Assembly (NCBI GenBank): GCA_965649105.1
Contig: CBFGJP010000003.1
Coordinates: 1 to 63,129, forward strand
DNA from: a candidate division WOR-3 bacterium
GTDB taxonomy: Bacteria > Hydrothermota > Tepidihabitantia > SM23-42 > JAOAFX01
DNA length: 63,129 bases
Direction: 5' to 3'
This document shows, one piece after another, positions 33,601 through 40,958 of the stretch. Below the pieces are notes generated by a model, which saw nothing but the letters and a program-made list of their open reading frames with translations, did not search any database and was not told the DNA's origin. Position 1 is the stretch's first letter, and every line of letters begins with the position of its first letter. The position numbers were made by a program, and so were the translations under genes.

Positions 33601-33993
33601 TTAATATACATAGCCTATGACTTCACCACCGATTTTTTTACGCCGTGCTTCCCGGTCGGTCATCACACCCTTGGAAGTGGTTAAAATCGCCACCCCTATT
33701 CCGTTTAAGACCGATGGGATTTCGTCCTTTGAAACATATACCCTTCGGGAACACCTTGATACCCTCTGGATATCTCGAATCACCGACTCACCTTCTTTTG
33801 AATACTTCAGCATCACCTTTATTTTGCGCGGCTTTCGCTCTGAATCAATGGTAAAATTGTTAATAAACCCTTCTTCGAGGAGAATCCTCAAGACATCAAC
33901 ATGTAATTTCGAATAAGGCACAACCACCTCTACCTTATTTGCGCGACAGCCATTCCTGATAATAGAAAACATATCAGCAATTGGATCAACCAC
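33601..33993 (-). CDS. rpsH: 30S ribosomal protein S8
   Basis: DPIADM..IRN, LTTSKGVMTDREAR, GGEV. Confidence 0.98.
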   Translation of the reverse strand: MVDPIADMFSIIRNGCRANKVEVVVPYSKLHVDVLRILLEEGFINNFTIDSERKPRKIKVMLKYSKEGESVIRDIQRVSRCSRRVYVSKDEIPSVLNGIGVAILTTSKGVMTDREARRKKIGGEVIGYVY

Positions 33994-34065: not shown

Positions 34066-34093
34066 ATTATAATCATTTTTTTAAAAAAGTCAA
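34066..34093 (-). promoter_or_regulatory. Sigma70-like promoter of the rpsH-led operon
   Basis: TTGACT-N16-TATAAT. Confidence 0.85.
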
Positions 34094-34676: not shown

Positions 34677-36604
<1,928 letters not shown>

Positions 36605-36664
36605 ATTAATACCTCCTTTCTTTCAATTTTTGATAAAATATCCCCTATCCTTAAACAACTAATC

Positions 36665-36738
36665 TGGGCGAAACCCGATTTGAACGGGTGACCTTCTGCT
36701 TGTAAGGCAGACGCTCTCACCATCTGAGCTATTCGCCC
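36665..36738 (-). tRNA. tRNA-Val(TAC), CCA not encoded
   Basis: GGGCGAA TAGCTCAGATGGTGAGAGC TCTGC CT-TAC-AA GCAGA ... TTCAAAT ... TTCGCCCA cloverleaf. Confidence 0.96.
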
Positions 36739-36750
36739 TTTAGACTTTCT

Positions 36751-36778
36751 ATTATAATCAAAAGTTTAGTTTTGTCAA
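36751..36778 (-). promoter_or_regulatory. Sigma70-like promoter of tRNA-Val
   Basis: TTGACA-N16-TATAAT. Confidence 0.88.
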
Positions 36779-36781
36779 TAT

Positions 36782-36809
36782 TTGACATTTTTAAGATTTT
36801 GGTTATAAT
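36782..36809 (+). promoter_or_regulatory. Sigma70-like promoter driving the ncRNA candidate
   Basis: TTGACA-N16-TATAAT, back-to-back with the tRNA-Val promoter. Confidence 0.88.
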
Positions 36810-36815
36810 ATCATT

Positions 36816-36900
36816 GGCTCTGTTAGAACCACTGTATCCTATTAAAAACCCGTACTCCCTCCTACGGGCTAAAGATACAGCCGGGAATTCTAATGGAGCC
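36816..36900 (+). ncRNA. Candidate 85-nt structured small RNA of unknown family
   Basis: Begins 7 nt after the -10 box; nested 13-, 7- and 6-bp helices; CUCCCUCC loop; followed by a U7 run; no ORF. Confidence 0.7.
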
Positions 36901-37069
36901 ACATTTTTTTAAAATCTGATCCCCGATTGATTTGTCAAACCCACTTCAAAAACCGTAATTCAATCTATAGTTGCAAAATGTCTTTTCTCACCCGGGCTCG
37001 TCTGTCATTAAGAAAAATAAACACTCAGAAACGAAAATTATAATCGGACGAGGGAGAAAAATTTCAATA

Positions 37070-37097
37070 TTGACAATCTCGGCTTGTTAGATATAAT
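37070..37097 (+). promoter_or_regulatory. Sigma70-like promoter of tRNA(CAT)
   Basis: TTGACA-N16-TATAAT. Confidence 0.88.
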
Positions 37098-37130
37098 ATG
37101 ACTCGTGGGAATGATAGGTTAGAGGAAAAA

Positions 37131-37204
37131 GGGCCCGTAGCTCAGGTGGTTAGAGCAGCTGACTCATAATCAGCGGGTCGTGGGTTCAAGTCCTACCGGG
37201 CCCA
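37131..37204 (+). tRNA. tRNA with CAT anticodon, probably Ile2 (lysidine); elongator Met not excluded
   Basis: Cloverleaf GGGCCCG...GCTGA CT-CAT-AA TCAGC...CGGGCCCA; G1-C72 paired so not initiator; C4-G69; CCA not encoded. Confidence 0.93.
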
Positions 37205-37213
37205 TTTTTAATA

Positions 37214-37612
37214 ATGAAATGGCAAATCCATCCAGCAAAGACACATATAACAAAGACAATCTTAAGCACTGTCTTTATTATCATTTTTGTCACTCTCATC
37301 GCGATTTTTTATAATCTTTACTGGGCACTGCTTGGTGCAATTTTTCTCTTCGCTTCTCTAAATGCTTATTATTTTCCCACTGAATACGAAATCACCGAAG
37401 ATGAGATAATTATAAAAACAATCTTCTCAACTAACAAACGGCAACTTAAAGAATTCAAAAAATTATATATTGGGAAAAACGGCATTCTTTTGAGCCCATT
37501 TAGCCATAAGACTTTTTTAAATAACTTTCGGGGGGTGTTCCTTTTATTGCCCGAAGAACGTAATGAAATAATAAATTTTCTCAAAGGTAAATTCAATGAA
37601 GACAATAGATGA
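37214..37612 (+). CDS. Hypothetical membrane protein (two TM helices plus a soluble domain)
   Basis: 132-aa ORF directly after the tRNA, overlapping the next gene. Confidence 0.75.
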   Translation: MKWQIHPAKTHITKTILSTVFIIIFVTLIAIFYNLYWALLGAIFLFASLNAYYFPTEYEITEDEIIIKTIFSTNKRQLKEFKKLYIGKNGILLSPFSHKTFLNNFRGVFLLLPEERNEIINFLKGKFNEDNR

Positions 37613-39092
37613 TGTTTTGATTCAAAGATATGCCAATGATTTTGACATTCCTTACGAACTCGCCTGGATAATTAGTAAAAGATTCCCTGATTATAATGAG
37701 GCAAAAAATTTTTTGCAACCCAAATTAGACCAGTTAAACAATCCTGAAGCACTACCCGATATAAAGGAAGCAGTTGAAATCTTGCTCCAGGGACTCCAGA
37801 ATAATGAAAACATCCTTATCTACACCCACGATGACCCAGACGGATATACATCCGCAACTGTCCTTTATCAAACACTTCTCGACATAACACGTAAGGGGCG
37901 ACCTGAAATATTTGTCTATCCCATTAACCGCGAAAGGGATGGATATGTTTTGAATCCATATGTATTAAAAGAGTATATTGAAAAGGGCGTCAAAATCCTT
38001 GTGACTGTTGATTTTGGTATAAGCAATCCTAAAAATTTCGAGATCGCCAAAGAGCTGGGATTGAAACTCGTCTTATGCGACCACCATGAAACCGAATTGA
38101 AAGAATTTCCATTTCCTGCTGTGGACCCAAAACGCAAGGATTCAAAATACCCATTCCGCGAACTCGCCGGTGTCGGTGTGACGCTTAAATTATGTCAGAT
38201 GCTTTATAAAACTGCATTGAACATTGAGGAAAGAGAATTTTTTAAACTAAAAAAAGAATACATTGCCATCACAATGATTGGAACGCTTGCAGACAGGGTA
38301 TTGCCCCTTGGCGAAAATCGTGTTCTGTGTTATGAAGGCATAAAAGTTTTTAAGGAAATTGATAGACTCTGGGCAAGAAATTTTTTGATTGACAACGCAA
38401 TCAGTATCCCACAGGTTTTTGATAAAATAATCCCGCTGTTGCAGTCTGCAGCATTAGAAGATTCACGCCTGGGTATTGATTTTTTTATCGCACCTGATTT
38501 TTTAAATGTCGTCGAAAAATTGAAATCAATAGAAAATGAAAGAAAAGAAAACATTGAATATCTGTTCCAGGTGGCACTTGATGTTGCCAAAGTCTATCCC
38601 AATATTGTAATATCGATCATTCCTTATGAGGTCGTAAATGAAAAACAAAAAACAAAGTTAAACAATCTTGGTGCGGTGGTATCAAAATTGCGCGACTGTT
38701 TTCATAAGACAGCGGTAGCAATGATAACAAAAGAAGAAAAATGCTATGCAGAATTACGGTCTTATGATATCAATCTTTTTGAATTTTTGAATAAATCAAA
38801 AGACCTTTTTATTGACTTTGGGGGTCACAAAAGGGCCGCCGGTTTTTCAATGTTAGAAAAAAATCTTGATAAATTTGTTGATTATGCGACAAAAGTTTTA
38901 CCTGAACCCGAAACAGAAAAAAGAAAACATATAGAACCTGAGGCAATAATTGATAAATCAAAGATAAAACTTCTTGACCCATTGTTGCCTTTTGGCGAAG
39001 GCAATCCGTCACCACTATTGACTGACGGCATTGATTTATATACAATAGATAACAGGTTGAATATTATTGAGATAGGACTATGGCAAACTTAA
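37596..39092 (+). CDS. RecJ-like DHH/DHHA1 phosphoesterase
   Basis: HDDPDG, TVDFG, CDHH, LAGVGV, GTLAD, FGGHKRAAGF, PFGEGNP.P. Confidence 0.85.
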   Translation: MKTIDDVLIQRYANDFDIPYELAWIISKRFPDYNEAKNFLQPKLDQLNNPEALPDIKEAVEILLQGLQNNENILIYTHDDPDGYTSATVLYQTLLDITRKGRPEIFVYPINRERDGYVLNPYVLKEYIEKGVKILVTVDFGISNPKNFEIAKELGLKLVLCDHHETELKEFPFPAVDPKRKDSKYPFRELAGVGVTLKLCQMLYKTALNIEEREFFKLKKEYIAITMIGTLADRVLPLGENRVLCYEGIKVFKEIDRLWARNFLIDNAISIPQVFDKIIPLLQSAALEDSRLGIDFFIAPDFLNVVEKLKSIENERKENIEYLFQVALDVAKVYPNIVISIIPYEVVNEKQKTKLNNLGAVVSKLRDCFHKTAVAMITKEEKCYAELRSYDINLFEFLNKSKDLFIDFGGHKRAAGFSMLEKNLDKFVDYATKVLPEPETEKRKHIEPEAIIDKSKIKLLDPLLPFGEGNPSPLLTDGIDLYTIDNRLNIIEIGLWQT

Positions 39093-39725: not shown

Positions 39726-40958
39726 ATGCTTGATACAATTGAAGAGGCAATCCGGGAGATAAAAAAGGGTAAACCCGTAATTGTGGTTGATGATGAAAAT
39801 CGCGAAAATGAAGGGGATTTTATTGCTGCGGCAGCAAAGATAACACCGAAACTCGTAAATTTTATGGCGCAGTATGGACGTGGACTTATTTGCGTTGCCC
39901 TTCCTGCTGAACGACTTGAACAACTGGATATTCCGATAATGGTAAATAACAATACCGCAAAATTTCAAACCCCATTTGCGGTAAGTGTTGATTATAAAAT
40001 AGGGACAACAACCGGTATATCTGCATTTGACCGTGCAAAAACGATTAAGGCACTTATAAACAAGGATACAAAACCTGAAGAACTTGCCCGTCCGGGCCAT
40101 ATATTTCCGTTGCGGGCAATGGAAGGCGGGGTATTAAGGCGTGCAGGTCATACTGAGGCAAGCATAGACCTCGCGCGGCTTGCCGGGCTTTATCCGGGTG
40201 GTGTTTTATGTGAAATAATGGACAGCGATGGTAGAATGGCAAAATTACCCAAATTAAAAAAACTCGCGAAGAGGTTTAATCTCGCAATTATAACAATAAA
40301 AGATCTGATTGAGTATCGCCGGAGAAGAGAAAAACTAATTGAAAAAATCCTTGAAACAAAATTTCCCACCAAGTACGGAGATTTCCGACTCCTTCTATAT
40401 GAGGATAAAATCAACAATGAACACCACATCGCCCTGGTATTGGGCAATGTGGCGGGGAAAAGAGATGTCCTTGTTCGAGTGCATTCCCAGTGTCTAACCG
40501 GTGATGTTTTTCACTCGCTGAGATGCGACTGTGGAGACCAGCTTGAAAAGGCACTCCAGTTGATTGCACGAAATAAATTAGGTGTATTTCTATATATGAG
40601 GCAGGAAGGCAGGGGTATAGGACTAGTAAATAAATTAAAGGCGTATCACCTACAGGATAAAGGATTGGATACAGTTGAAGCAAATATCAAACTTGGTTTT
40701 CCACCGGATTTGAGGGATTATGGGATCGGTGCCCAGATACTTGCGGATCTCGGACTTTCCACCGTGAGACTGCTTACGAATAATCCGAAAAAGATAATAG
40801 GACTGGAGGGTTATGGACTGGAGGTAGTTGAACAGATTCCAATCTTTGCACCGAATAAATGCAATATAAATTATTTGAAGACAAAAAGAAAAAAACTTGG
40901 GCATTTAATACCTGATGCAGTAATAAATGACCCCAATCTTAAAGGAGGCAGTATATGA
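39726..40958 (+). CDS. ribBA: DHBP synthase / GTP cyclohydrolase II
   Basis: [39 protein letters not shown]. Confidence 0.98.

Follow-up and report, generated by a model that had tools for sequence, protein, structure and literature searches.

What does the short region between two divergent gene units of a candidate division WOR-3 genome encode? The region separates a tRNA-Val-groESL unit from a tRNA-Met(CAT)-orf132-DHH unit, within a stretch of 63,129 nucleotides that was analysed as a whole and is referred to below as the window. The first-pass annotation of this DNA placed a novel small RNA (sRNA) gene here, with a consensus promoter and a loop resembling the anti-Shine-Dalgarno (anti-SD) sequence, and suggested that the RNA either sequesters Shine-Dalgarno (SD) sequences or is a miniature 6S RNA. 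Here we ask whether the gene is real, how it is conserved, and what the RNA might do. MAGs that carry the label candidate division WOR-3, several from the JZ-2 sample series, contain the neighbouring GroES in identical form or as close relatives. The features that surround the locus are as follows.

36604-34677, minus strand: GroES and GroEL, after tRNA-Val
36665-36738, minus strand: tRNA-Val(TAC), divergent from the sRNA, identified with ARAGORN
36778-36751, minus strand: tRNA-Val promoter, matching the consensus at 12/12 positions, its -35 box back-to-back with that of the sRNA
37070-37097, plus strand: the tRNA-Met's own promoter, matching the consensus at 12/12 positions
37131-37204, plus strand: tRNA-Met(CAT), downstream of the sRNA
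37214-37612, plus strand: orf132, a conserved protein with no Pfam match

The position and strand of tRNA-Val(TAC) agree with the earlier description of the RNA as divergent from tRNA-Val. Both flanking operons (36604-36778(-) and 37070-37214(+)) are apparently led by their tRNA. On the left, tRNA-Val and groES are separated by a gap of 60 nt without an obvious promoter, and tRNA-Val is also found upstream of groES in 13/13 other WOR-3/TA06 loci scanned. Beyond groEL there are a Zn-ribbon gene, a DUF2905 gene and then the ribosomal protein genes S8, L6 and S5. A near-consensus promoter, TTGACT-16-TATAAT (34066-34093(-)), lies ~70 nt upstream of S8 (33601-33993(-)), and given this gene order the usual spc operon therefore seems to be split here.

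On the right, tRNA-Met is followed by the conserved 132-aa ORF, a DHH/DHHA1 protein, a small GTPase and riboflavin genes. The ATG of orf132 is 9 nt past the end of the tRNA and orf132 has no SD, so that tRNA processing could yield a nearly leaderless mRNA. Residues ~15-50 of orf132, in its N-terminal part, are mostly hydrophobic by eye. Only 36 relatives were found among 5.8 billion proteins; those with names are assigned to WOR-3 or to a plain 'bacterium', with one source giving the description PH domain-containing, and the linkage to tRNA-Met(CAT) is always present. The CAT tRNA has a G1-C72 pair and an anticodon stem without three G-C pairs, and so is not an initiator. It would be an elongator tRNA-Met or, if lysidine-modified, a tRNA-Ile2, and its sequence appears to resemble that of E. 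coli ileX.

The locus also lies where gene orientation flips from minus to plus (~36000-39000) and where the cumulative GC skew has its minimum, with the turn at ~37 kb. A replication origin at ~37 kb was considered and rejected: there is no cluster of DnaA boxes near the strand switch (22 scattered sites vs 22.8 expected), and thus nothing indicates an origin at ~36000-39000.

The predicted transcription unit consists of the following elements.

36782-36809, plus strand: sigma-70-type promoter of the sRNA, with the -35 box TTGACA at 36782-36787 and the -10 box TATAAT at 36804-36809
36816-36910, plus strand: predicted sRNA transcript, starting at the predicted +1 (G36816) and including the whole U7 run, with a mature 3' end within 36904-36910
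36901-36910, plus strand: 3' tail, consisting of ACA and then U7 at 36904-36910

The promoter, TTGACA-16-TATAAT, matches the consensus at 12/12 positions and places the +1 at about G36816, just as the first-pass annotation had it. This is the same quality as that of both flanking tRNA promoters. The window contains twelve TTGAC(A/T)-N16-18-TATAAT sites, six of them with an exact TTGACA, and three of these six lie together within 350 bp and belong to tRNA-Val, the candidate RNA and tRNA-Met. The sRNA hexamers, TTGAC(A/T) and TATAAT, are kept in 16/16 homologs for which upstream sequence is available, while the spacer and flanks drift. In every homolog where tRNA-Met follows the RNA, at a distance of 63-303 nt, the tRNA is preceded by a promoter-like TTGACA / TATA(A/C)T pair of its own, from which it follows that the sRNA is a separate transcription unit and not a tRNA leader. 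The -35 boxes of the tRNA-Val and sRNA promoters are 3 bp apart and form a palindrome, TTGTCAATATTTGACA (36773-36787), conserved in the homologs as TTGTCAAT(A/G)TTTGAC. This palindrome could be the site of a shared regulator, or could cause the two promoters to compete.

At the other end, the U7 run noted earlier is present; the end coordinate given with it, 36907, falls inside the run. All homologs have (A/C)CAU followed by a U-rich run, which is degenerate in L111/L112 (UUACUUUGUU). The promoter and tail attributed to the RNA are both conserved. Since the hairpin is followed by a U run, the RNA is probably its own intrinsic terminator, with U7 as the U tract and the RNA itself as the terminator hairpin. 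The DNA further downstream (36911-37069, up to tRNA-Met) and its equivalents in L004, L012, L093 and L098 are highly variable: the stretch is 63-303 nt long or is broken by unrelated DNA, which in L004 carries a toxin-antitoxin pair (HepT/MNT) and a transposase of the rve family. The stretch has the look of a hot spot for insertions.

Between its two ends the transcript is predicted to fold into a single long interrupted hairpin, with these parts.

36816-36828, plus strand: 5' strand of P1, GGCUCUGUUAGAA, paired with 36888-36900
36832-36838, plus strand: 5' strand of P2, CUGUAUC, paired with 36874-36880
36839-36848, plus strand: 5' side of the internal loop, A-rich, 10 nt, CUAUUAAAAA
36849-36868, plus strand: apical hairpin, consisting of P3 and the 8-nt loop
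36849-36854 with 36863-36868, plus strand: P3, CCCGUA/UACGGG, 6 bp
36855-36862, plus strand: loop CUCCCUCC, 8 nt, all-pyrimidine and unpaired
36869-36873, plus strand: 3' side of the internal loop, CUAAA, 5 nt, making the loop asymmetric
36874-36880, plus strand: 3' strand of P2, GAUACAG, paired with 36832-36838
36888-36900, plus strand: 3' strand of P1, UUCUAAUGGAGCC, paired with 36816-36828

The P1/P2/P3 hairpin drawn in the first-pass annotation holds base for base, the minimum free energy structure and the centroid from RNAfold both being this same structure. The folding energy of 36816-36910(+) is -34.7 kcal/mol (z = -5.49), and 0/200 shuffled sequences fold as well. P1 has 13 bp including two G-U pairs (U36821-G36895 and G36822-U36894), and is followed by a 2-bp extension across a bulge. 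At 37 C some pairing is predicted within the internal loop. Predictions up to 80 C return the same fold and leave the apical loop unpaired, which matters for an organism from a hot spring. A suitable loop mutant would for example change CUCCCUCC to CUGGGUCC.

A covariance model (CM) built from related genomes had been proposed as a check on the RNA. It could be built, and covariation was seen: there are 17 distinct versions of the RNA, collected by three routes. Synteny with GroES gave L001, L004, L008 and L012; synteny with the 132-aa ORF gave L108 (whose RNA is identical to that of L096), L111, L112, L114, L115 and L117; and a single metagenome scan with the 20-nt apical hairpin gave L091-L098. 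All of the homologs have the divergent tRNA-Val, the promoter, the RNA and the U-rich tail, and in most of them tRNA-Met(CAT)-orf132-DHH comes next. The CM scores of the 17 are 61-126 bits on the plus strand and 16-26 bits on the minus strand. Outside the apical 20 nt the RNA is 72-97% identical to the window copy; the DHH neighbour has 60-82% amino-acid identity in the same genomes.

The 17 sequences were aligned (alignment A4) to look for selection on the structure. In A4, 92.3% of the cells are in standard pairs, compared to 34-41% when the partners are slid by 1-3 columns. P1 is paired in 94% of cells, and where it varies only one partner changes, turning G-U into A-U or G-C or the reverse. 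P2 has compensatory changes, U-A to C-G and A-U to G-C, at 3-4 positions (L096/L108, L097 and L111/L112). Altogether six pairs have changed on both sides, and neither this count nor the covariation score was reached by any of 500 shuffles. Cells with G-U outnumber those with A-C by 35 to 9, which shows that selection acts on the transcript of the plus strand rather than on a DNA palindrome. In the internal loop the A run is kept, with indels of 1-3 nt and an insertion of ~10 nt in L111/L112. Covariation and the strand-specific G-U pairs thus both back the fold, and the support for structural selection appears real but modest, as compensatory events are few and the alignment, of related sequences, had been fitted to the model.

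The apical hairpin hardly changes. All 20 positions of P3 and the loop are identical in 15/16 other homologs, the exception being L114, whose loop CCCCCUCC has one U-to-C change and keeps CCUCC. For 8/17 homologs the search pattern itself fixed P3 and the loop, and only the nine found by synteny are unbiased in this region; these nine have the same invariance, which is therefore not an artefact of the pattern. The loop consensus is C(U/C)CCCUCC, which holds the anti-SD core CCUCC. In the alignment and the predicted fold, the loop is the most conserved part of the RNA and is always unpaired, and the sequence of the P3 stem is equally invariant.

Taken together, the 12/12 promoter, the fold and the 17 homologs identify the locus, as far as sequence can, as a real gene for a hairpin RNA of ~90 nt with its own predicted promoter. 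The first-pass annotation also called the RNA novel. Scans with all 4227 Rfam families, of the whole window at their gathering thresholds and of 36400-37400 at E <= 10, found only the two tRNAs and chance-level noise, for example a minus-strand match to a Betaproteobacteria toxic sRNA with 17 bits against a gathering score of 50. For the RNA itself nothing relevant was seen even at E <= 10, including among the SRP, 6S, tRNA, cuckoo and RsaE-type models. The claim of novelty therefore stands, and the Rfam scan that had been suggested for it gave no strong match. SRP, 6S and tRNA-like readings were rejected on account of their wrong anatomy and the lack of CM matches. A riboswitch was also rejected: the next gene is a tRNA with its own promoter and not a regulated ORF, and no CM matches.

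The statement that there is no ORF is right in substance; mechanical ORFs do overlap the region, with frames that are not conserved. Two public gene calls lie over the RNA (L108:1571-1741, 56 aa, and L114:1191-1376, 61 aa), and with such frames they are probably spurious. A leaderless micro-ORF encoding a small peptide might be suspected from these annotated ORFs, from the use of leaderless mRNAs in this organism and from the ATG or TTG that overlaps the +1 in 13/17 homologs (9 ATG, 4 TTG). However, the 5'-end frame gives peptides of 9-61 aa in different frames across the 17 homologs, with A-run indels of 1-2 nt causing frameshifts; two homologs have ACG or TCG in place of a start codon and another two have CTG; and the substitutions preserve base pairs, not codons. 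We give hardly any credence to this idea, and with neither frames nor start codons conserved, a coding RNA was rejected.

The RNA has a narrow distribution. The CMs R1 and R2 found no match upstream of tRNA-Val-groES in the 13 other WOR-3/TA06 loci; these species have the tRNA-Val-groES pair and its promoter, with other DNA upstream. The same CMs found no RNA adjoining tRNA-Met-orf132 homologs that are <=57% identical, where the tRNA-Met-orf arrangement is kept. In the outgroup L104 (2862-6094), where no RNA was found, one strand carries all of tRNA-Met-orf-DHH-GTPase-tRNA-Val-groES in that order. The RNA is found only in the lineage in which the two tRNA-led units are divergent. Since L104 is collinear, the lineage of the window has probably undergone an inversion or rearrangement, with the sRNA gene at the junction. 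Judging from these searches, the RNA is confined to one hot-spring clade of candidate division WOR-3. There is one copy in the window and one per locus, and none in the viral contigs of IMG/VR. This argues against a MITE-like repeat, and such a mobile element was rejected on these grounds together with the strand-specific G-U bias.

The anti-SD core in the loop directs attention to translation initiation. About 20 genes in the window have an AAGGAGG SD. About seven look leaderless, with a TTGnnn-N16-18-TAnnnT box ending 5-8 nt before the start codon, at these positions.

3071(-), ~7139(-), 11673(-), 19046(-), ~24164(-), 39726(+) and 47023(+): leaderless-looking starts, box 5-8 nt before the start

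The earlier remark on leaderless mRNAs thus holds, and SD-led and leaderless initiation are predicted to coexist in this WOR-3 genome. Within the window, no specific mRNA target was found by searching for the loop complement, for near-matches or for duplexes. The exact complement of the loop, GGAGGGAG, occurs nowhere else in the 63-kb window. Searching with a 12-mer and allowing <=2 mismatches gave two matches where 3.0 are expected, which is within chance: the locus itself and the ribosome-binding site of ribH (40942-40953). When RNAduplex was run over 48 start regions, the ranking followed SD strength, and the duplex energies correlated with those of a generic anti-SD oligonucleotide (r = 0.83). 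The loop is predicted to form only 5-7 bp with a generic SD.

What, then, might the RNA do? As is general for genes of trans-acting sRNAs, the locus has a promoter of its own and ends like a terminator, lacks a conserved ORF, and is conserved among relatives in both sequence and structure. A stable hairpin behind a strong promoter, with a conserved pyrimidine loop that is left unpaired, suggests an RNA that acts in trans with the loop as its seed. Our leading explanation, which we favour tentatively, is that the RNA is a trans-acting sRNA whose pyrimidine loop pairs with ribosome-binding sites of the GGAGG type, a predicted function. It would be transcribed from G36816 as an independent unit, giving an RNA of ~88-95 nt that would fold into the P1-P2-P3 hairpin followed by the U run. 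The almost invariant, exposed loop with its CCUCC would pair in trans with purine-rich GGAGG(G) at the ribosome-binding sites of SD-led mRNAs, block binding of the 30S subunit and so lower their translation; leaderless mRNAs, of which this genome has many, would escape. A chaperone could make contact with the A-rich internal loop and the U tail. Some points speak against SD pairing. The invariance of the P3 stem seems to exceed the requirements of a loop seed alone; no specific target was found in the window, and pairing with a generic SD covers just those 5-7 bp; and a consensus, probably constitutive promoter would be unusual for a condition-specific regulator.

The main rival, a serious if rather doubtful one, is that the RNA binds a protein, serving as decoy or scaffold, or as the RNA subunit of a small RNP. 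The apical hairpin, that is the P3 sequence and the pyrimidine loop, would be recognised sequence-specifically, for example by a protein of the KH, S1 or cold-shock type or by a factor that normally sees the 3' tail of 16S rRNA, and the long stem would give stability. P3 never varies in the 17 sequences whereas P2 covaries at 3-4 positions, which implies that the stem sequence and not just its pairing is under selection. Such invariance appears to fit protein recognition at least as well as SD sequestering, although it could also arise if pairing with a target extends into P3. The loop consists entirely of pyrimidines, and the 12/12 promoter, like those of the flanking tRNAs, suggests the abundant, constitutive expression typical of RNP components. 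The lack of a specific mRNA target in the window points in the same direction. On the other hand, no partner gene is linked to the RNA, as groESL, orf132, DHH and GTPase are also present in relatives in which it was not found, and the narrow clade range argues against a housekeeping RNP. A quite improbable reading is that the RNA, made constitutively and in large amounts, mimics the 16S anti-SD tail and titrates, transcriptome-wide, either SDs or a factor that recognises the anti-SD.

A further possibility is that the RNA is mainly a by-product. The divergent promoter would act in cis to modulate the promoter of tRNA-Val-groESL, with the hairpin and U run merely terminating the transcript, or else the sequence would be a relic of a rearrangement or an insertion junction. 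The two -35 boxes with their conserved palindrome, the restriction of the RNA to loci with divergent units (none being found in the collinear L104) and the insertion hot spot just downstream all fit this. Nevertheless we consider it unlikely: a mere terminator or spacer would not keep 20/20 apical nucleotides, an 8-nt loop and a covarying P2, the G-U bias reflects selection on the RNA strand, and the single copy per locus, with none in viral contigs, does not resemble a repeat. The position between two tRNA genes, with a promoter of equal quality, also raises the idea of a tRNA-like minihelix, in which P1 is cut by tRNA 3'-processing enzymes and CCA is added, so that the RNA joins or titrates tRNA maturation. 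P1 has 13 bp and a 5' G, it is followed by the conserved unpaired (A/C) of (A/C)CAU, and a CCA-adding pathway must be active since neither flanking tRNA gene encodes CCA. This proposal is purely inferential and leaves the invariant apical hairpin unexplained. There is no cloverleaf or tRNA-like domain, and in this region ARAGORN and the Rfam tRNA model report only the flanking tRNAs and no tRNA-like signal at the RNA; we regard it as very unlikely.

Still less probable is the miniature 6S RNA of the first-pass annotation, which would bind RNA polymerase by mimicking an open promoter. 6S RNA is a rod of ~160-200 nt, in which a large central bubble lies between two long irregular helices. The WOR-3 RNA resembles it in having a strong promoter of the stable-RNA type, an elongated, rod-like helical shape and an internal loop. 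However, at ~88 nt it is half the length (~180 nt), and one end is closed by the 6-bp stem and loop, with no second long arm. The internal loop is small (10/5 nt), varies in length by up to ~10 nt and is partly paired at 37 C, and no 6S family matches at E <= 10. That part of the annotation is therefore abandoned.

New lineage-specific sRNAs are common. The points of interest in this one are the uncultivated phylum, the tRNA-grade promoter, the frozen pyrimidine hairpin and the coexistence of SD-led and leaderless genes. If the loop does pair with the SD, this would be a natural RNA of the anti-SD type in an organism where many leaderless and SD-led mRNAs coexist, and would bear on how translation is partitioned between the two modes; were the RNA a mimic of the 16S tail, it would set the balance between them. 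WOR-3 occurs widely, and most of what is known of this phylum comes from metagenomes; the locus provides a delimited sRNA gene, for which promoter, ends, fold and a candidate seed can be named, and a covariance model with which to trace it. On the practical side, gene callers have placed probably spurious hypothetical proteins over the RNA in at least two public assemblies.

It remains to compare the RNA with known systems. A limited search of the WOR-3 literature found no regulatory RNA. Among the well-known stable RNAs, the bacterial small SRP RNA is universal, and has a domain IV with a GNRA tetraloop and conserved internal loops that bind Ffh. Like 4.5S SRP RNA, the WOR-3 RNA is a hairpin of ~100 nt, and its first nine bases, GGCUCUGUU, are probably shared with the 5' region of E. 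coli 4.5S RNA, a likeness that we take as a lead only. It differs in having an 8-nt pyrimidine loop at its apex, no domain IV motifs and no SRP match at E <= 10, and in being restricted to one clade. Plasmid antisense RNAs of the CopA and RNAI type consist of one long stem with internal loops, topped by a recognition loop of 6-8 nt, and are encoded in cis opposite their target. The WOR-3 RNA has the same long interrupted stem with a loop on top. Unlike them, it has no gene on the opposite strand, and its loop has no purine and therefore cannot form a YUNR U-turn.

A second set of comparisons concerns C-rich loops. RsaE/RoxS of Firmicutes have C-rich unpaired motifs that are thought to pair with G-rich SD regions. 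Pairing with G-rich SD regions has also been discussed for the UCCC loops of S. aureus RNAIII (PMC4615179). The WOR-3 RNA has no sequence or structure match to these in Rfam, and both architecture and taxon differ.

Loops with an anti-SD motif are the tested seeds of the NfeR1/alpha-r14 sRNAs, and the NfeR1 loop silences mRNAs at the ribosome-binding site (PMC10746234). The same anti-SD role has been proposed for the cuckoo RNAs and the UCCC loops of RNAIII (PMC4615179). The cuckoo/alpha-r14 RNAs (CcsR, NfeR1) have 2-4 adjacent hairpins of ~24-50 nt each (PMC4615179), every hairpin loop carrying the 9-nt motif CCUCCUCCC (PMC4615179, PMC10746234) on stems that vary freely (PMC10746234, PMC4615179). 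The WOR-3 RNA is instead a single interrupted hairpin of ~85 nt, whose loop, CUCCCUCC (CCCCCUCC in L114), has only the CCUCC core in common with that motif and whose closing stem is invariant; the phylum is another one, and at E <= 10 over 36400-37400 no Rfam model matches the RNA. It shares with alpha-r14/NfeR1 and the cuckoo RNAs (CcsR, RSs0680) of Alphaproteobacteria an exposed loop with an ultraconserved, C-rich, anti-SD-like motif containing CCUCC; those RNAs are non-coding and act in trans, and its proposed mode of action follows the concept of the anti-SD-loop sRNAs. Judged on sequence and predicted architecture, it is a member of no anti-SD-loop family, and is a new RNA family of a familiar sRNA kind.
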